64,000 bases of DNA, taken from NCBI GenBank assembly GCA_012690745.1, contig GCA_012690745.1_4086.1; one strand, 5' to 3'. The stretch is from a phage. The position numbers and the translations under genes were made by a program. The notes under the pieces were generated by a model, which saw nothing but the letters and a program-made list of their open reading frames with translations, did no database searches and was not told the origin of the DNA. Shown here piece by piece: positions 48,512 to 63,122 of this stretch (position 1 is the stretch's first letter; the number at the start of each line of letters is the position of its first letter).

Positions 48512-48907
48512 TTATAAAGACGATACTGAATATGTTGCCATTCTGTTATTACTTCTTGCATCGAATACAATAGTAAGTTCTTCTAATGTATCCAATACTA
48601 CGTACTGTAATACAATATTCATTTGGTATCCATATTCTATTCTTGAAATTTGCAATTTCTTAAGATTTAAGCGTGGATCTAAGCTAATTATTCTACGGGC
48701 ATCTGCTTCCAAAAGGTTGATAGTATTATAACCTTCCAATTCAAACAGCAAATCCCATGCAATAAAACCATAGTCAGCATCAAATGCTCTTTCGCCTTTT
48801 TTTGTATTGAAATGATTCATTAAATCTTGGCGAACCAATTCACTATCATACAATGTTTCAGTTCTACCCACTACTGGGGTAGAAAAACCTTTAAAAACAA
48901 CTGCCAT
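48512..48907 (-). CDS. baseplate wedge protein, gp25/GPW-like
   Basis: 131 aa; contains the family-typical TKKGERAFDADYG (GER...FG) motif; size and position between lysozyme and the J-like gene fit. Confidence 0.65.
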   Translation of the reverse strand: MAVVFKGFSTPVVGRTETLYDSELVRQDLMNHFNTKKGERAFDADYGFIAWDLLFELEGYNTINLLEADARRIISLDPRLNLKKLQISRIEYGYQMNIVLQYVVLDTLEELTIVFDARSNNRMATYSVSSL

Positions 48908-48922
48908 TGACTATTTCCTTTA

Positions 48923-49411
48923 TTATACGGATTCAACAATACGTGCCATCTTTTCCGCTCTTGAAGTGGTTTGTTTATACCATGTACTATCACGCAATTC
49001 CTTACCAGCAGTTTTATAATCAGCCTTACCTAATGCGGTCATTGCTTTTTTAAATTTTAAAACTTTGGTTTTTCCCATCTGGAATACCATCAACCATAAT
49101 ACACGTTGAACCTGTACAGGTGCGGTCATACCAAATTGTTCATAAATTGATTTTGCATCATTGTACGCAGTTTGAGCATCTTTAAGAAGAAGTTGGTCAG
49201 CTTGTGCTTCTGTTAAACCATTCTTGAAATTTTCACCAGGTAAAACTAGGTGACCATAGCCAATAGTATCAAGACCTAAGCTGTCTTTATATACCCAAAA
49301 CTTATCATTTTTAAAATAACCAAGTTTTTTCTGATAAGCAATAGTTCCTTCAAATTCTTTAATTTCCTTAAAAAATTGCTCATCTGTATTTTTAATTTCC
49401 CATTTACTCAT
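48923..49411 (-). CDS. T4-type lysozyme (GH24 endolysin)
   Basis: 162 aa; catalytic context EFEG...KDSLGLDTIGYGH (Glu/Asp/Thr triad arrangement of T4 lysozyme) and MVFQMGKT helix motif. Confidence 0.85.
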   Translation of the reverse strand: MSKWEIKNTDEQFFKEIKEFEGTIAYQKKLGYFKNDKFWVYKDSLGLDTIGYGHLVLPGENFKNGLTEAQADQLLLKDAQTAYNDAKSIYEQFGMTAPVQVQRVLWLMVFQMGKTKVLKFKKAMTALGKADYKTAGKELRDSTWYKQTTSRAEKMARIVESV

Positions 49412-49447
49412 AAAGATATCCTCGTTTTATTTATAGTACTAAAATAT

Positions 49448-52111
49448 TTATTGACATGCCTCTAAACGACGAGCCATTAACTCAGCACGGCGAGTAGTTT
49501 GGCGATACCAAGCTGAATTACGTATTTGAGCAGCAGCTTGTTTATAATTACCTTTAGCTAATTCAGACAACATAGTTTTAAATTTAAGTACCCCACCTTT
49601 ACCCATCTGGAATACCATTTGGCATAGTACTTGTTGAGCCAAATAAGGTGTTTTCATGTTGTATGAAGCATAAATTGATTTAGCATCATATATAGCTTTA
49701 CTACTATCACGAACTAACATATCGTTGGCTTGCTGTTCAGTTATTCCATCTGAAAAGTTTTCACCACTAATAATTAAGTGACCATAACCAATAGTTGGAT
49801 ACCCACGACTATCCAAATAACGCCAGAATTTACCATTACGATAATATCCTTTTGCTTGTTGGTATTGTAATGTACCTTCATATTCTTTTAATTCAGAAAT
49901 AAATTGTGCATCACCTGGAACAACTTTCCAATCGATTGCAGTTTTATCAACATTTCCAATATTATAGGTAGGTTGCTCCACCGGAGTTGTTGAAGCTCCA
50001 CTTCTCTGTGTTCTTCTCCTACGAGGCACATGACGAGAACCACGTTGAGAATATCCAGTACCTATCGTTTTGATTTTTGTTGTAACTACCAATTCATCAC
50101 TATCAACTGAAGGTTGTACAACTGCTTTTGGAGCAGATTGATTAGTTGCTTGACCACCAATTAATGTTTTATTCGCCGCATCAGACCCTGTTCCTGTTTG
50201 TGAAGCATAAAATAATCCTGGGTCAACAGAACCACTGAATCCAAGAACATTTGCTGATGTAACACGAATTTCAAACTGTATGACACCATTTGCTTTTCCA
50301 ACAACTTGACCTTTTTGAACAACATCTTTGTTTAATAAATCAGATTGAATATTATAAAAAATAGATTTATATCCAGACTTATGTTGTATTAAAAGAGCAC
50401 CATTAGTAATTACTACCACACCACCATCTGGTGCAACTACATCACCTTTACATTGTATTTCCCAACCTGAACGGTCTGCCTTTCCTCCACTTTGTGTTGG
50501 AACACCTTTCCCCCAGTAACCATATTGTCGAATAGTACCGCTACATGGCATTAACATATGTAAACCTTCATATGTAATACTATATCCAGTCATCCCAGGA
50601 TCAGATGTCATCAAATCTTGTGATTGAACTTGTTCAGTTTCTGATGTATAGTTAACAAACTGAACAGCTTCAGTGTCTTGTGCTACGGGTAATTCTGGTG
50701 ATACATCATTTGCTGGTTGTGGTTGTACTGGTGATTCACTAGAACCACTTCCACCACCTTGTCTTGGTGGTTCAACATAACTACCATGATTTTCAGCGTT
50801 AACCCATGCAGCGATATCATGAATGTGTTCATTAAGACCAGCAGATGGTGTTCTAAAGTTTGGTGCAGTAAATTCAGCAGTACCGCTATTACCACCACTA
50901 TTAACTGTTAATGTTTGACCACCACCACTAATAATTGCTGATGATGATCCAATTAGGTTTGCAGATGTTGCGGCAGAAATAGAAGCATTTGAACCAGCCG
51001 TAATATCAGTACTGCTACCACTTTGCATACGTAATGATGCAGCCGTAACTAAACGAAGGTCTGCCCCAGAATTAACAACAACTTGTCCACCAACTTTTGC
51101 ATCAAGAGCACCAATTAGATCTAATTTAGTATTTGCACCAACTCGTGCATTGAAATCTTGTCCGGTTTCAATATTATATGAACGTCCAGCAGTAATATTA
51201 ATATCTTGACCAGCACGAATATTAATATTCTTATCACAGTGCATGTCAATATCACCTTCACCAGTGAATTTTATACGTGCAGTGCCATCACGGTTAATTA
51301 AAAGAACATCACCAGTAGCTTCTGATAAAAGAAGTTGTGCACCACTACGTGTTTTTATTACGACACCTTCATTTTTACGAGAACCAACACGTGTATCGTT
51401 TACTGGGTTATTAAATTGTGTATCTTGATATCCATCTGGGTCTTGATCCCACGTTGGTGCTGTTAATTCCTCTTCAGTATATCCATCATCAATAATAAAA
51501 CTATTACCACGTGGCGAAGACATACCATATACAGTACTGGTGGTTTGTCGAGTACTACTACGATTCGCCAACCCAGCTTCTTCGTCATATAAAAGGTTTT
51601 GCTTTTTAAGACCTGCGATGATTGGAACGTTAGCATATTTGTCTTGCATATCGGTAGTGATAGTGTTACGATCATAGTCAGTAACAGGAAGTGGCATATC
51701 AGTTCCACCATAATTACTTACTTCAGTTGCCATACCCGGAACCATAGTATTCATACGCTGGTCATATACACAACCAATCCAATATGCTTGGAATGTACGG
51801 GCTTGTGCAAAAATTACAACAACTGTACACCCTACGTCTGGTGGTACTGCCCAAAAACCGTATCCTTTTGGATATTGACCATATGCATCAGCACTTGGAA
51901 TACCTGGTGTTTTACCAGCAAAAGGAGACATGTAAGATGCTTCTATCCATGATTCTTTTGAGTTTTTATCACTTTGAGAACCTTGTATCCAAACTTTCAG
52001 TTTTCCTGATTTAGTTGGATCTCTGTTATCCATAACAGTTGCTAACTGCGGATAAGATGGGTCAAAACGACCCAACTGCTGTTGTGCATACTTTTTACTT
52101 GTATCTGCCAT
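49448..52111 (-). CDS. baseplate central spike/hub protein, gp5-like, with C-terminal GH24 lysozyme domain and a central M23-like beta-barrel segment
   Basis: 887 aa. N-terminal OB-like region; Gly/Ser/Thr/Asn-rich repetitive middle (aa ~280-410); M23/LytM-like pattern (aa ~510-620, catalytic His residues not evident); C-terminal domain (aa ~725-887) paralogous to the free lysozyme (DSRGYPTIGYGH, QMVFQMGKGG). Confidence 0.7.
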   Translation of the reverse strand: MADTSKKYAQQQLGRFDPSYPQLATVMDNRDPTKSGKLKVWIQGSQSDKNSKESWIEASYMSPFAGKTPGIPSADAYGQYPKGYGFWAVPPDVGCTVVVIFAQARTFQAYWIGCVYDQRMNTMVPGMATEVSNYGGTDMPLPVTDYDRNTITTDMQDKYANVPIIAGLKKQNLLYDEEAGLANRSSTRQTTSTVYGMSSPRGNSFIIDDGYTEEELTAPTWDQDPDGYQDTQFNNPVNDTRVGSRKNEGVVIKTRSGAQLLLSEATGDVLLINRDGTARIKFTGEGDIDMHCDKNINIRAGQDINITAGRSYNIETGQDFNARVGANTKLDLIGALDAKVGGQVVVNSGADLRLVTAASLRMQSGSSTDITAGSNASISAATSANLIGSSSAIISGGGQTLTVNSGGNSGTAEFTAPNFRTPSAGLNEHIHDIAAWVNAENHGSYVEPPRQGGGSGSSESPVQPQPANDVSPELPVAQDTEAVQFVNYTSETEQVQSQDLMTSDPGMTGYSITYEGLHMLMPCSGTIRQYGYWGKGVPTQSGGKADRSGWEIQCKGDVVAPDGGVVVITNGALLIQHKSGYKSIFYNIQSDLLNKDVVQKGQVVGKANGVIQFEIRVTSANVLGFSGSVDPGLFYASQTGTGSDAANKTLIGGQATNQSAPKAVVQPSVDSDELVVTTKIKTIGTGYSQRGSRHVPRRRRTQRSGASTTPVEQPTYNIGNVDKTAIDWKVVPGDAQFISELKEYEGTLQYQQAKGYYRNGKFWRYLDSRGYPTIGYGHLIISGENFSDGITEQQANDMLVRDSSKAIYDAKSIYASYNMKTPYLAQQVLCQMVFQMGKGGVLKFKTMLSELAKGNYKQAAAQIRNSAWYRQTTRRAELMARRLEACQ

Positions 52112-52124
52112 AATATTTTATTCC

Positions 52125-54374
52125 TTAATCAACTATACTATCGTGACGTTTGAGTGCACGAATTACAATTGCAGCTTGAATTTGTTGTGTAAAAGAACCA
52201 CCTGCACCAAAATCATGAACAATTTTATTAACACGATAAATTGTTTGGTTAAATGTGGTTGGTGTATTAATATCCAAAACACCAGTGTTATCATTTATTG
52301 ATATTACTGGTTGTAATTTTAGTAATAGATACGCTTCAGATGTTATATAATTTGCTACATGATAATCATCTGGGTTAATTTCCATATCTTCACCATTAAT
52401 TACTTGTTCTAGATATTGTAAGTAAGAGTAATCACTCCACCCTAACCAGTACGGGTCGCCTACTACACGCATATCGAGTTTACACAAAAAAGGTCTATTG
52501 TAATAGTTGTCACGTATTTTACGTCTATCCATTTCATATGTGCTGCTGTTATCGTTTAACGAAGCGGATAAAGTTGTTTCATTGTTAGTTGCTTCGGTTG
52601 GCATTGTGAACACTTCACCATAACGGTGACCAACACCATCAGTACCGCCATCGTTTTCTTCATAAGTGGTTACATAATCTTCAATATATTGAGGTAAAAC
52701 ATTGACTTGATAGTTATTATAACGGTCTTGTTCTTCTGCGTTACCAACCTGCATTTGATTTTTTGCTAAAGTTTCAACTTCAGTTAACAATTGTTGTTGG
52801 GCTTGTGTTAACATCCCTCCTAAATCACGAGTTACACGTAAATCACTTGTTTTTGCCCATGCGTCTGGTATACTATTGTATTGTACACCTTGAATATTGA
52901 GTTCTTGGGATGTATGTGTACCTGCATGGTTCGCTACATCTTGTATCGGACCAGGGTTACGTGTAGTGGCTACGAAAAATTGCTGATCAAATTTCAAATC
53001 CAAATCAAGTATCTCACTATTAAGCCCACTAAATTGATAATTATAAGTTTTCATGTTTATTTTTGGTTTTTGATCATTAGGATCTACGTATTTTTCTGCG
53101 TTCTCAAAAAAGTACTCAAATGTGAAATTTTCAGGTTGTAAATCCGATTCATGAACAATATCACCTATTTTAAATCTAACAATATAAAAAATTACTTTAT
53201 AAACAGAAGTATTACGATAATTATCAAAACCAACGTATTGTTTAACTGGTATAATGTTTACAAATTGACGCACACTAGTACTATCATCGGCTTGTACAGT
53301 ACATGTATCAATAACGTCATCAATAATTCGAGATATAGGAGTACTTGGGTTCCATGAAAAGTTTTTAGAACCTTGTGCACCACTTTTAGTTGTTCCGGCC
53401 TCTGCCATTTGTTTAGAATCATAGTTTATAAACAAATCTTGCAAATCAGGTGCTACTTTAAATTCGAAAAATTTACCTTCGGATAATTCACCAAATTTAT
53501 ATCTAAGATAACCATATTGTTGGTCAGCCATCTGATTTAATTTATCTTCTAAATCAAAGCAGAAGTCACCAAAGTTTTCAGCAGTACAATTGAATGGTTC
53601 TTTTAAGGTCCATTCAATGTTATCAACTAAAGCTGCTCTATTATGAACTAAGTTCATAGTATACATCATAGTACTACCACTTTGTGAAGCACTTGCAGTA
53701 ACACTATTAATTTTAACTGACCAGCGTCTTGTTGTTTCTGGGATAATTTCAGGTATTCCATTTTTATTAAAGCCAATAAACTTTAATTCCAAGATCAATG
53801 GCAAGTCCATAAATTTATGATATCTAAGTTTGTTACTTAACGAAATTAATTCATCATATAGACTCATACTATTATTTTCAGACATATTAAGTACTGCTGT
53901 ATTAAAACAATAGTTTGTTGTCATTCCTGGTGTTGAAGGTCCAGCTTGTGTCATTTGTACACTAGTGATATTATATTTGCCAGTAACACCACTTTCTGAT
54001 ATCACATGTCGTTGCACTTCTGCATCTGGGTAAAGCCAAAAGTTTTTAAAATCATCTTTATCTAAGGCAAATAAACAAAAGTGCCAAGTTGGGTTATCAT
54101 ATTTCAATAATTTATTGTCATACGGTATTACAAACTGACTTAAATCGAGATCTTCATAAACTTGATCAACACTAGCACTTTGTTTTGGTAATGATACTAC
54201 ATTACTTACATTTGCTTTGTAATTATTTTTTGTAATAGTTTTTACATCATTTTGTAATGTATTTGCTGTAGCTTTCAAACTATCAAGTGCATTAGATGTG
54301 GTGGTTTTAGCCTTACCAGTAATACTTGTAATATCATTTTGAAAATTATCAACTGTACTTCGTAAATCTGCCAT
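52125..54374 (-). CDS. baseplate hub-associated protein (749 aa; possibly gp27-like)
   Basis: Long ORF immediately upstream of the gp5-like spike gene in the same operon; assignment is positional. Confidence 0.45.
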   Translation of the reverse strand: MADLRSTVDNFQNDITSITGKAKTTTSNALDSLKATANTLQNDVKTITKNNYKANVSNVVSLPKQSASVDQVYEDLDLSQFVIPYDNKLLKYDNPTWHFCLFALDKDDFKNFWLYPDAEVQRHVISESGVTGKYNITSVQMTQAGPSTPGMTTNYCFNTAVLNMSENNSMSLYDELISLSNKLRYHKFMDLPLILELKFIGFNKNGIPEIIPETTRRWSVKINSVTASASQSGSTMMYTMNLVHNRAALVDNIEWTLKEPFNCTAENFGDFCFDLEDKLNQMADQQYGYLRYKFGELSEGKFFEFKVAPDLQDLFINYDSKQMAEAGTTKSGAQGSKNFSWNPSTPISRIIDDVIDTCTVQADDSTSVRQFVNIIPVKQYVGFDNYRNTSVYKVIFYIVRFKIGDIVHESDLQPENFTFEYFFENAEKYVDPNDQKPKINMKTYNYQFSGLNSEILDLDLKFDQQFFVATTRNPGPIQDVANHAGTHTSQELNIQGVQYNSIPDAWAKTSDLRVTRDLGGMLTQAQQQLLTEVETLAKNQMQVGNAEEQDRYNNYQVNVLPQYIEDYVTTYEENDGGTDGVGHRYGEVFTMPTEATNNETTLSASLNDNSSTYEMDRRKIRDNYYNRPFLCKLDMRVVGDPYWLGWSDYSYLQYLEQVINGEDMEINPDDYHVANYITSEAYLLLKLQPVISINDNTGVLDINTPTTFNQTIYRVNKIVHDFGAGGSFTQQIQAAIVIRALKRHDSIVD

Positions 54375-54385
54375 ACGTTACTCCA

Positions 54386-54700
54386 TTAGCCTATGTTTCG
54401 AGTACCATTAAGATAATTCTGTACTCTTTGATTTGCTGGTATTCTAATTGTTACTCCACTTTTAAAATTATATATAGGATCTTCTCCTAGTATGTCTGGA
54501 TTTAACAATGCGAAAATATAATATAAGCGTTCATTACCATACATTTCGTATGCTAAACGCCAAGGTTGATATTCATATTTCAATGGGATCTCATAAAAAT
54601 CATCAGTATCAGCCGGAACAATATCACGTGGTAAAGTATACCCAAGATACCATGTTTGTTTCACCTTAGCGTAAGGTGAGTATTGACTATAGTTGGACAT
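54386..54700 (-). CDS. small baseplate/tail-associated protein (104 aa)
   Basis: Short ORF whose start overlaps the stop of the upstream gene (translational coupling). Confidence 0.45.
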   Translation of the reverse strand: MSNYSQYSPYAKVKQTWYLGYTLPRDIVPADTDDFYEIPLKYEYQPWRLAYEMYGNERLYYIFALLNPDILGEDPIYNFKSGVTIRIPANQRVQNYLNGTRNIG

Positions 54701-55521
54701 TAAATGAATCCTCCTTTACGTAATAGTTCACCACGTTTGAATGCATTGAGGTTGAACGTTTTAGTCATATAATCCGATGTTGGTTGTTCTTCAAGTTGTA
54801 ACATAACTGAGATTTTTTGTGGAACCCAAACTTCATCTTGTGGGTTCATATATCCAGTACTTCTAAGTTGTTCGAAGAATTTTCTACTATCCATGTCGGA
54901 TAAATTAAAAGTACTATCGCTACTATTCAACGGAACTTGAATATAAGAAACATCATTTGGGTAAGTAAAATTATAAGATTTTAAAATAACAGGAATATCA
55001 TTATATGTATAACGACCATATCCACTTAGAAGTAAGATTGGTGGTGGTGCACCTGCAATTGCGAGTTCGGGGTTATTAGCCGAAGCAGCTTGTCTACCAA
55101 AATCCATCAACGAAACAGAACGTATAAAATGAACACATGCCAACGCATACATAGCTTCTGCTGCTGTATTCGCATAAAATTCACCCTGAATCGTGAAAAC
55201 TGTATTAGTAGTGTTCTTATAGTTGTTATAGTTACTGTTAGTATGTATAGGGGACTGTGTTTCATACTGAATTGACCTTTGTTCAGTAATTGTTGGTGTT
55301 ACAGTCCAAACCAACCCATTAGTTGGACGCAGAAACGAAAGTAGAGTTGGTTCGGAGCTATCTCCAAAATCACCATATACATAGTTAGCACCTGCGGCTT
55401 TAGGTCGTAATCGAATTCTACGATCAATCATCTTTTTGATTCTCCATAATAAGGGAACATTTGATGTATTTATACGTGGGACAAACTGCTTTTTGGTGCT
55501 ATAATAACATTGATGGTACAA
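54700..55521 (-). CDS. hypothetical baseplate/tail-associated protein (first gene of the minus-strand baseplate operon)
   Basis: ORF track begins at a TTG (55521); an in-frame ATG at 55431 is preceded by GGAGA and may be the real start (about 243 aa). Confidence 0.45.
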   Translation of the reverse strand: MYHQCYYSTKKQFVPRINTSNVPLLWRIKKMIDRRIRLRPKAAGANYVYGDFGDSSEPTLLSFLRPTNGLVWTVTPTITEQRSIQYETQSPIHTNSNYNNYKNTTNTVFTIQGEFYANTAAEAMYALACVHFIRSVSLMDFGRQAASANNPELAIAGAPPPILLLSGYGRYTYNDIPVILKSYNFTYPNDVSYIQVPLNSSDSTFNLSDMDSRKFFEQLRSTGYMNPQDEVWVPQKISVMLQLEEQPTSDYMTKTFNLNAFKRGELLRKGGFI

Positions 55522-55562: not shown

Positions 55563-56402
55563 ATGACAAATAGACCAAAGCGTAAAAAGTATCTCAATAA
55601 TGCTGATTTACTTCGTGAAATACAAAAAAGTAAAATTTCATATTGCTGGTTATTAGACAAATCATATAGTATGTATGATTATATTGTTTTTCATGAGTCA
55701 GGAATTACTGCTGAGTTACTAGAAAAAGCTAAGGCAGCACGAATTAAACGACTGAACAATGAAATGCTTGATAGTATTCGTGAAAAGGAAAATATGAGTG
55801 CTAAAAAAGCTAAAGAATATGCAGATGAACACAATTTAGTTATCACTGACGTTCCAATTGATGAAGTTGTTATTCGTGTTATTACAGATGAACATATTCC
55901 ACCAGATACTAGAGTTAACTTTGAACCATTCAAGCATTATATTGTAGATAATGAAGGTATTCTCTATGAAGTTTGTCGTTCTCACTGGAAAGGCGACCTT
56001 GAAACTGGTGAATTCAGTACTGTTCATGGTAAAATTACAAATGAACTTGGGAAGATGTTCATTAAACTTGCAGAGGAAATCTCACACAAATCTAATTACA
56101 GAAACTATACATACTTAGATGAAATGATGGGTGATGCAAGAATACAATTAGTTAAAAACGCACTTCTCTTTAAAGAGAGCATTCTTTATAAAAAAGATAA
56201 ACCAGCAGTTCAGCTAAATCCTTTCTCTTACTATACATCATTCGTAAACAATAGTTTTCGTTCTATATTGAATAGTGAGAAAAATGTTCGAAATATACGT
56301 GATGATTTACTTGAAATGCATGGCTTTACGCCATCACATACACGTCAAATTGAAATTGAATTGAACATGATTGAAAGGAAAAATGAAGATGGCTCTGTTT
56401 GA
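55563..56402 (+). CDS. late-transcription sigma factor, T4 gp55-like (with internal insertion)
   Basis: 279 aa; N-terminal KKYLNNADLLREIQKSK and C-terminal NPFSYYTSFVNNSFRSILNSEKN resemble gp55 segments as recalled from memory; sits directly upstream of gp47/gp46 as in T4. RBS GGAGAG. Confidence 0.5.
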   Translation: MTNRPKRKKYLNNADLLREIQKSKISYCWLLDKSYSMYDYIVFHESGITAELLEKAKAARIKRLNNEMLDSIREKENMSAKKAKEYADEHNLVITDVPIDEVVIRVITDEHIPPDTRVNFEPFKHYIVDNEGILYEVCRSHWKGDLETGEFSTVHGKITNELGKMFIKLAEEISHKSNYRNYTYLDEMMGDARIQLVKNALLFKESILYKKDKPAVQLNPFSYYTSFVNNSFRSILNSEKNVRNIRDDLLEMHGFTPSHTRQIEIELNMIERKNEDGSV

Positions 56403-61946: not shown

Positions 61947-62156
61947 TTAGTGCTTCTCGTTTTGTTTTTTAATTTTTTTATTAAAAGACTTAACTAATAA
62001 GTCTCTATCTATTAATGGCATATTAAGGAGTGTTCCATAGTCAATGTTATCCATATATACAGAACATTCCATTAGTGCATTTTTGATTTCTGACTTATTC
62101 AGTTCTATCTCCTTCAGTACTTCTTGTATTTCTTCAGGAGATGACTGGAGAAGCAT
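61947..62156 (-). CDS. small hypothetical protein (69 aa)
   Basis: Start overlaps the stop of the upstream gene at 62156; K/E-rich. Confidence 0.4.
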   Translation of the reverse strand: MLLQSSPEEIQEVLKEIELNKSEIKNALMECSVYMDNIDYGTLLNMPLIDRDLLVKSFNKKIKKQNEKH

Positions 62157-62992
62157 TACTCGAAAAAATGACTAGGATCATATTTTAGTCCATCAATTTC
62201 CCATTGATGATTACATCCATCACATTCTACTTCCATACTATGTGATACTCCAATTTCAAGTACTTCATCCATTTTTTCACGAATTAGTTTAAGTACTCCC
62301 TTCGATTGTTGTCCAAGCCATTCATTAATAAATTCTTTTTCAACTACTTCATCACCATCTGGTGTTATAATTTTTGCAATAACTCCACCGATCATGTCGA
62401 AGTTAAGTTGAGCCATGTTTTCAAATACTTCAGAAAATATTTTTACTTTTTCATCTTTATCAATATCAGCAGTTTCAAGAAACTTAGTCTTCTGTTGCTC
62501 ACTGAACATGCGTTCAGCAAACGATGAATATTCTTTCCATGTAAGTGGTCTAAATTCTAAACGGAGTCCATTATCTAAATCAATTGATGGGATTTCTTCA
62601 AATGCTTGTGCAGTTTCAAGAAGATATGATAGATTACGCTCAAATCGACCTTCTTTTTCACATTCAGGACATACAACGTTAATATCATATGTTTCTTCTT
62701 TAGAAGCAACTTTAATAGCAATAAGAAGCATTTCAACGTCATTTACATACAACTCATCAGCGTCAATTACATTAGGAACACAGTTTTCAATAACACGGGA
62801 TACTGCATCTCCGTTTAGTAACATATCGGGGGTATTAAGTGTCATTTCATCACGTGCACTACGTGCACAAACTCCACATTTGACACCTTTTGGACCTAGG
62901 ACTCCTTCTTTATAAGGAATAACGCCGTTTGTAACTAACTTAGTACTGATCTCTTCAATTTTAGTGTACTTAGCAAGTGGATTCATAGCCAT
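62156..62992 (-). CDS. hypothetical protein with two CxxC pairs (putative zinc-binding)
   Basis: 278 aa; CGVC...CPEC...CDGC; ATG confirmed at 62992. Confidence 0.5.
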   Translation of the reverse strand: MAMNPLAKYTKIEEISTKLVTNGVIPYKEGVLGPKGVKCGVCARSARDEMTLNTPDMLLNGDAVSRVIENCVPNVIDADELYVNDVEMLLIAIKVASKEETYDINVVCPECEKEGRFERNLSYLLETAQAFEEIPSIDLDNGLRLEFRPLTWKEYSSFAERMFSEQQKTKFLETADIDKDEKVKIFSEVFENMAQLNFDMIGGVIAKIITPDGDEVVEKEFINEWLGQQSKGVLKLIREKMDEVLEIGVSHSMEVECDGCNHQWEIDGLKYDPSHFFE

Positions 62993-63122
62993 TTTATTAA
63001 ATCTCCATGTAATAAATGTGTTTTAGTATTTATAAGACCAAAAAAGATTAAATTAAACTAATTTTTATATTCTCTATAGTTTCATAAATATTTCTATAAT
63101 ACATCTATTAAAAGGGAATGTT

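Follow-up and report, generated by a model that had tools for sequence, protein, structure and literature searches.

A putative central spike of Asteriusvirus jumbo phages with a degenerate LytM domain and a GH24 lysozyme beyond its β-helix

No part of a phage meets the host envelope earlier than its central spike. The textbook model, T4 gp5, combines an OB-fold, a triple-stranded β-helix and a GH24 lysozyme in a chain that reaches the periplasm on contraction. The T4 gp5 lysozyme is an insertion that separates the OB-fold from the helix and occupies residues ~190-326 of the chain, the chain is cleaved at residue 351, and the C-terminal helix is capped by a separate PAAR protein, gp5.4; the T4 genome also encodes a free GH24 paralogue (gene e). 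Spikes of the Apex type, such as P2 gpV, phi92 gp138 and R-pyocin PA0616, have an OB-fold, a β-helix and a strictly conserved HxH motif, after which about 12 residues form a pointed tip. HxH near the spike C-terminus belongs to the iron-binding Apex domain, and such spikes have been proposed to lack a PAAR tip; the motif also occurs internally in trimeric fibres, as an iron clamp (bioRxiv 10.1101/2023.02.25.529910; PMC12407873). A further arrangement is that of the 'evolved' VgrG proteins of type VI secretion systems, in which an enzyme working in the periplasm of the target is fused to the C-terminus of the helical spike and relatives carry swapped cargo, as in Vibrio cholerae VgrG-3 and the pesticin-like VgrG3cp, which target peptidoglycan (PMC9927483), and Pseudomonas aeruginosa VgrG2b (PMC6899460). 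Here we compare with these systems a gene for a putative central spike of 887 amino acids (aa), and the lysozyme gene that follows it, in a 64,000-nucleotide stretch of phage DNA (NCBI GenBank assembly GCA_012690745.1, contig GCA_012690745.1_4086.1; hereafter the window).

The closest described relatives are CBB_240 and CBB_239, which belong to the same gene family and the same neighbourhood as this spike and its free-standing lysozyme. Their 2017 description (PMC5259590) assigned a gp5 OB domain to the N-terminus of CBB_240, a possible M23 domain (Pfam E 6.5e-4) to its centre and a lysozyme to its C-terminus, reported a T4-type lysozyme encoded next to it, noted that the architecture differs from that of T4 gp5 and left the role as a spike uncertain. 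The outline architecture is therefore not new, and our results refine existing knowledge of an already annotated protein rather than reveal a new kind of system. The β-helix and the HxH motif were not recognized in that description, and the loss of the M23 ligands and the lysozyme duplication were not covered. What the sequences add is a helix and an HxH motif placed before the cargo, so that a phage protein shows an 'evolved-VgrG-like' topology; an M23 domain that is a selected pseudo-enzyme throughout the family; the exchange of cargo among related spikes; and a free lysozyme that is an old duplicate with its own late-promoter motif and probably not the main endolysin.

Both open reading frames (ORFs) named in a preliminary description of the window, made from the letters alone, are present on the minus strand, at 49448-52111 (887 aa) and 48923-49411 (162 aa). 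The window shares 99.9% identity with Escherichia phage PBECO4 and 95-99.8% with 121Q, phAPEC6, SP27 and further members of Asteriusvirus, a genus of jumbo myophages with genomes of ~350 kb, and the 887-aa protein matches phrog_13211 over its full length with 1813 bits. The preliminary description had taken this protein for a composite gp5-type central spike with its lysozyme at the extreme C-terminus, unlike T4 gp5. Both points are borne out by matches to PF04717 and PF10106 and by a GH24 domain at residues 725-887, as against 190-326 in T4-type gp5 chains. What had been missed is the triple-stranded β-helix and the invariant HxH motif; because these precede the M23 and lysozyme domains, the latter are placed beyond the needle, where T4 gp5 has no domain at all. 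Counted from M1 as residue 1, and with domain coordinates verified, the chain runs from OB-fold through connector, needle, HxH motif and linker to a degenerate LytM domain, a second linker and the lysozyme. The conservation figures given below refer to an alignment of 83 homologues, and key motifs were also checked in four further representatives of 37-42% identity. All segments of the gene are given as minus-strand coordinates of the window.

The OB-fold (residues 23-116; 51764-52045), which would dock the spike to the hub or tube, matches PF04717 (Phage_base_V) with an E-value of 8e-7 and 29.8 bits when the full protein is searched (cut-off 23.8) and with 33.5 bits when the N-terminal part is searched in isolation, and it contains 19 invariant columns. 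The connector that follows (residues 117-249; 51365-51763) is the best-conserved segment of the protein, with 71% mean identity and 20 invariant columns, and holds no inserted enzyme, in contrast to the lysozyme insertion of T4 gp5. Its predicted local distance difference test (pLDDT) score is low at residues 116-157 of the monomer model, as might be expected of an extended segment that depends on a partner. The needle (residues ~250-420; 50852-51364) is formed by triple-stranded β-helix repeats that reach 34.7 bits against PF10106 (DUF2345; cut-off 30.7) and a pLDDT of 83-90 in the monomer model. The family profile also matches the helices of VgrG1, T4 gp5C, phiKZ gp164 and the central spike of cyanophage A-1(L). 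A β-helix thus follows the OB-fold in what would be a trimeric spike.

Directly after the helix stands the motif LN-x-H429-x-H431 (H429-I-H431; 50819-50827), in which both histidines are invariant in 83/83 homologues and in 4/4 of the further representatives. By analogy with the HxH proteins above, H429 and H431 most likely form an inter-chain, iron-binding histidine cage that clamps the three chains together. We read the motif as a putative clamp at the end of the needle, which need not be the physical tip.

Beyond the helix, the protein has the layout of an evolved VgrG, with LytM and GH24 domains downstream and relatives that carry GH19 or GH24 in the same place. It differs from VgrG at the other end and in its setting: VgrG proteins have an N-terminal fused gp27-like module and belong to a secretion system with immunity proteins, whereas the 887-aa protein has no Pfam match to PF05954 (Phage_GPD, gp27-like), starts its OB-fold at residue 23 and would serve phage genome delivery, not killing.

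Relatives that share only the first ~40% of the protein (OB-fold and helix) fall into three kinds, namely cargo-less proteins of ~500-600 aa and proteins with either GH19 or GH24 after the helix. One group of ~555 aa has a homologous SLN.L.GH.H motif, a Gly/Ser linker and a strand that aligns with residues 478-486, and stops soon after 'TYEPCPEH', which aligns with 'TYEGL' at the start of the M23 domain here. The corresponding region of the 887-aa protein (50573-50764) comprises a Gly/Ser/Pro linker (residues 450-476), a small predicted element of a strand (478-486) and a helix (490-499), and a stretch before the M23 domain; it is variable (26-46% identity), and its linker and strand-helix element are homologous to the C-terminal tail of the cargo-less ~555-aa relatives. 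This alignment supports a conserved spike core of ~510 aa to which LytM and GH24 have been appended, and, judging from the sequences, cargo modules are swapped among related spikes. The cargo-less ~555-aa spikes (P0093, P0094, P0097, P0101, P0103-P0105, P0095 and P0112) carry, after HxH and a Pro-rich linker, a conserved Cys/His-rich (T/F)(Y/F)EP(C/W)PEH(E/T)(H/N) end, with a possible role as second metal site or as built-in tip.

The preliminary description had also pointed to an M23/LytM-like segment without metal ligands at residues ~510-620. The M23/LytM β-barrel fold is indeed found there, at residues 514-650 (50162-50572), and every ligand position is substituted. Active M23 enzymes hold zinc through HxxxD and the second histidine of HxH and use two further, catalytic histidines; the corresponding positions are occupied here by R547, E551, N587, V610 and Q612, and no ligand set, complete or partial, occurs in any of the 87 family sequences. 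At 57.9%, the mean identity of the domain equals that of the GH24 domain. The alignment thus shows a family-wide pseudo-enzyme that is evolutionarily maintained. M23 domains are common in viral hub, tail and tape-measure proteins, as are lysozymes borne on tails. The LytM domain here is structurally closest to the degenerate LytM regulators, its best structural matches being EnvC, DipM, SpoIIQ and PrgK.

In PrgK of the conjugative pCF10 type IV secretion system, also an envelope-crossing machine, a metal-free LytM domain down-regulates the neighbouring muramidase (bioRxiv 10.1101/2024.02.15.580431). This is the nearest functional precedent for the role that we consider most likely, in which the LytM domain of the spike is a protein-binding accessory that would restrain or position the neighbouring lysozyme until infection; DipM-type LytM domains, too, bind lysozyme-fold transglycosylases. 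PrgK itself, which also carries a CHAP domain, differs in having an SLT-like muramidase rather than GH24, another domain order, a Gram-positive setting and no spike. EnvC, NlpD, DipM and SpoIIQ are proteins of the cell, located in periplasm or membrane and combined with coiled-coil, LysM or transmembrane partners, whereas the present domain sits in a virion spike and its groove residues are unconserved. The pairing of a lysozyme-like domain with M23 in the tail-tip protein gp13 of phi29 is of yet another kind, with the reverse domain order, neither OB-fold nor β-helix and a Gram-positive host; its M23 domain keeps the zinc site and is an active endopeptidase.

The GH24 (T4-type) lysozyme domain closes the chain (residues 725-887; 49451-49939) and matches PF00959 with 45 bits. 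Its catalytic equivalents are E745, D767 and T773 (E11, D20 and Thr26 in T4 lysozyme), with Glu kept in 82/83 family members, Asp in 82/83 and Thr or Ser in 62/83, and the Glu-Asp spacing is ~13 residues longer than in T4 lysozyme. From its sequence, the spike-borne domain looks like a catalytically intact muramidase. In one subclade (18/83), the residue 773 column, equivalent to Thr26, holds Asp within a remodelled 'PD--PVKGQ-DIGYGH' loop, which may change the catalytic mechanism or product there. Between the LytM and GH24 domains, residues 651-724 (49940-50161) contain a conserved strand, ELVVTTKIKTI (675-682), and then a QRGS-x3-P(R/K)R motif, followed by a disordered polybasic linker (residues 699-715, RRRRTQRS; pLDDT below 50). 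Within this segment, V675 and G691 are invariant and R690, S692 and P696 nearly so. Strand, RGS motif and basic run might serve for processing, as a docking strand or as a patch that interacts with membrane or lipopolysaccharide.

Genome context and published proteomics place the protein in the baseplate and the virion. The spike gene lies in a minus-strand baseplate operon that begins with genes for a structural protein, a gp53-like protein and a 749-aa structural protein and continues after the spike with the free lysozyme, a gp25-like protein, a 1153-aa gp6-like wedge and a structural protein of ~3300 aa, so that it is flanked by gp53-like, gp25-like and gp6-like genes as expected of a baseplate-module member. 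The conserved downstream neighbour is the gp25-like wedge gene (48512-48907, minus strand; PF04965, E 1.2e-8), and the order of spike, (free lysozyme), gp25 and wedge is kept in eight diverged loci. Mass spectrometry of virions detected the spike orthologues of phAPEC6 (gp241, 95.9 kDa; 7 peptides, 9.9% coverage) and of CBB (CBB_240; 3 peptides, 4.1% coverage).

Taken together, the best overall explanation, and one that we regard as probable, is a trimeric central spike of a contractile tail with a dead LytM domain and an active GH24 lysozyme as cargo. In this scheme, the OB-fold and the conserved connector would attach the spike to the baseplate hub, and HxH at the helix end would clamp the three chains through an iron-binding histidine cage, after which each chain would run on through the flexible Gly/Ser/Pro linker into its LytM and GH24 cargo. 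Contraction of the sheath would drive the needle across the outer membrane and bring three LytM-GH24 copies into the periplasm, a step that we infer from P2 gpV and T4 gp5, both known to reach this compartment. There, the lysozyme would cut glycan strands and so give the tail tube a way through the peptidoglycan; the LytM domain, being dead, would cleave nothing and would most likely restrain or position the neighbouring lysozyme until infection. The free 162-aa gene, with its own late promoter, would supply a soluble, auxiliary muramidase for late lysis.

Several observations weigh against this scheme. The full-length monomer model, with a predicted template modelling score of 0.48, carries no information on domain-domain contacts, and three appendages of ~45 kDa each beyond the needle tip are sterically awkward. 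Unlike in Apex-type spikes, 456 residues follow the HxH motif, and ~90 follow it even in the cargo-less ~555-aa relatives, so that HxH may clamp the chains internally instead of forming a pointed apex; no gpV- or gp138-type apex similarity, moreover, emerged from the profile search. Given the low coverage of the virion mass spectrometry, the C-terminal domains are only presumably retained in the virion. Finally, the former active-site positions of the LytM domain vary across the family and its invariant residues look fold-structural, which argues against a conserved ligand in the former catalytic groove.

This variability also bears on two other readings of the LytM domain. The domain could be a peptidoglycan-binding targeting module that has kept its peptide-binding groove but not the metal and ties the lysozyme to the sacculus where penetration takes place. 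The prediction of an M23 fold whose overall groove is intact is of high confidence, the domain stands directly before the muramidase as wall-binding domains do in modular lysins, and the predicted endolysin of the genus likewise couples GH24 with a wall-binding LysM domain; yet the former active-site residues are variable, and EnvC, DipM, SpoIIQ and PrgK act by protein-protein contacts, which makes such an anchor somewhat unlikely in our view, if the most credible of the alternatives. Hit hardest by the variable groove-equivalent residues is a second reading, in which the structural kinship with regulators would mean that the spike injects a mimic of EnvC or NlpD that binds AmiA/B/C or other autolysins and activates these host enzymes locally; we consider it very improbable. 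Even the broader analogy, in which the conserved dead LytM domain would be an injected pseudo-enzyme regulator, either as such an autolysin-activating mimic or as a safety catch on the spike lysozyme until firing, seems improbable as a specific claim.

The position of HxH and the linkers raise another alternative, in which the part after the helix is cut off during assembly, so that the needle ends near HxH and the LytM-lysozyme fragment is lost or held non-covalently. In its favour, the HxH region is followed by a conserved GGG(S) stretch, and the lysozyme is preceded by the conserved RGS...P(R/K)R motif and the disordered polybasic linker. According to the HxH literature, the motif should stand near the C-terminus of the mature protein; post-assembly cleavage is known from T4 gp5, and the glycine-rich self-cleavage sites of lactococcal Tal proteins offer an analogy. 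There is, however, no evidence of processing, the virion mass spectrometry tables giving full-length masses that are possibly calculated. The cargo-less relatives also keep ~90 residues past HxH, and the cargo domains, being conserved as strongly as the structural ones, are at least functional. Such cleavage therefore strikes us as unlikely, and we retain the uncleaved spike with its LytM and GH24 cargo as the preferred explanation.

The free-standing lysozyme (48923-49411, minus strand; 162 aa, PBECO4 gp535) is a paralogue of the C-terminal domain of the spike. Both copies match the family profile and have the T4-lysozyme fold, and the alignment places Glu, Asp and Thr of the free copy opposite those of the spike, in agreement with the preliminary description, which had assigned the two to one family. 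The orthologue from UE-S1, LysUE1, has been purified and is muralytic in vitro in the presence of ethylenediaminetetraacetic acid (EDTA; PMC12805682). The GH24 subfamily with the long Glu-Asp insertion reaches far beyond enterobacterial jumbo phages, since Pelagibacter and Xanthomonas phages are among the sources of close matches (E<=1e-20) to the 162-aa protein. A third GH24 paralogue, 121Q gp532 (L011:11192-12118), lies just outside the window and has an N-terminal transmembrane segment, possibly of signal-arrest-release type, a LysM domain and a Glu-Asp spacing even longer than in the other two; these genomes thus hold three GH24 lysozymes in three different contexts.

The preliminary description had proposed duplication or capture between an endolysin and a virion lysin. 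That the two are paralogues by duplication stands, but the name endolysin is not established for the free copy, because the transmembrane and LysM-bearing GH24 protein is the predicted endolysin of Rak2-like phages (PMC5259590). Unlike its T4 counterpart, the free copy adjoins the spike. With the third GH24 protein as the likelier candidate, it is probably not the main endolysin. It is probably a soluble late muramidase that aids lysis in an auxiliary way and is not part of the virion. Alternatively, it could be present in few copies as a baseplate or assembly component, to which, for example, the LytM domain of the spike might bind. Its gene lies between spike and gp25 in many diverged genomes, adjoining the spike in GAP32, XaC1, P0074, P0077 and P0085, the predicted endolysin is a separate protein, and dead LytM domains bind lysozyme-fold enzymes in other systems. 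Against this, the free lysozyme was not detected in the virion proteomes of phAPEC6 and Rak2-like phages, although the spike was, and it is dispensable in the P0076, P0080 and P0084 lineages, which keep the rest of the operon with gp25 directly after the spike. These absences make a structural role less likely; together with the late-promoter motif of the gene and the activity of the purified soluble enzyme, they leave a baseplate component decidedly unlikely in our judgement.

As for the age of the duplication, a bootstrapped neighbour-joining tree of 20 lysozyme domains (~160 columns) was rooted on T4 lysozyme. In 87% of bootstrap replicates, the free copies from the window, GAP32, XaC1 and P0074, which make up the main clade, are monophyletic, and only 0-3% of replicates pair a free copy with the spike domain from the same genome. 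The duplication therefore predates the split of these genera, with no recent gene conversion, and it is not a recent exchange. The deep free copies of P0077 and P0085 would fit either the same event with later losses or separate events, and the sequences are compatible with copying in either direction, from spike to free gene or from free gene to spike.

The stop codon of the spike and the ATG of the free lysozyme are 36 nt apart. This gap contains TATAAATA (49428-49435, minus strand), which matches the T4 late-promoter consensus and is followed by a GAGGA ribosome-binding site. The 64-kb window holds three copies of TATAAATA against 10.95 +/- 3.2 expected by chance, so the motif is under-represented, and all three sit 16-40 nt upstream of minus-strand ORF starts. 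The second copy (55467-55474, minus strand) precedes the first gene of the operon to which the spike belongs, with the RefSeq start of PBECO4 gp531 lying ~36 nt downstream of it, and the third (63027-63034, minus strand) precedes the ORF at 62156-62992. A gp55-like late sigma factor gene (55563-56402, plus strand) is divergent from the baseplate operon. Motif and sigma factor gene together suggest an extra late promoter for the free lysozyme and the genes that follow it; the three sites are likely to be genuine late promoters of this jumbo phage, and we assign the copy at 49428-49435 a putative promoter function on the same grounds. The mechanical call of the ORF at 54700-55521 (minus strand) starts at TTG and yields 273 aa, whereas the RefSeq product has 243 aa; the shorter start is favoured, because the motif at 55467-55474 falls inside the longer ORF.

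Two further features of the region concern the spike gene and its upstream neighbour. The 749-aa gene (52125-54374, minus strand), directly upstream of the spike, occupies the slot expected for a gp27-like hub, and a counterpart of 682-807 aa is kept at every related locus; its product has no match in Pfam and no sequence match in the PDB. Positions 50001-52000, within the spike gene, form the most GC-rich 2-kb block locally (0.388, as against ~0.33 in the flanks), which probably reflects the helix and linkers, rich in Gly, Ala and Ser, and not foreign origin.

For the biology of these phages, the family represents an alternative to T4 gp5, whose lysozyme stands before the needle and whose tip is a separate PAAR protein. 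In phages of the Rak2, 121Q and PBECO4 type, and in many metagenomic relatives, the family would combine a needle closed by HxH with swappable wall-degrading cargo behind it, and selection maintains its pseudo-peptidase as strongly as the enzyme. It thus offers a tractable system for the stowage of cargo on spikes, for the roles of dead LytM domains outside cell division and for the origin of tail-borne and soluble lysins by duplication. Since these phages are being developed for therapy, and lysozymes such as LysUE1 as enzybiotics, knowing the role of each GH24 copy also has practical value. If the LytM domain does regulate the lysozyme or host autolysins, phage needles, like evolved VgrGs, would be modular carriers of swappable periplasmic effectors beyond an HxH-clamped helix.

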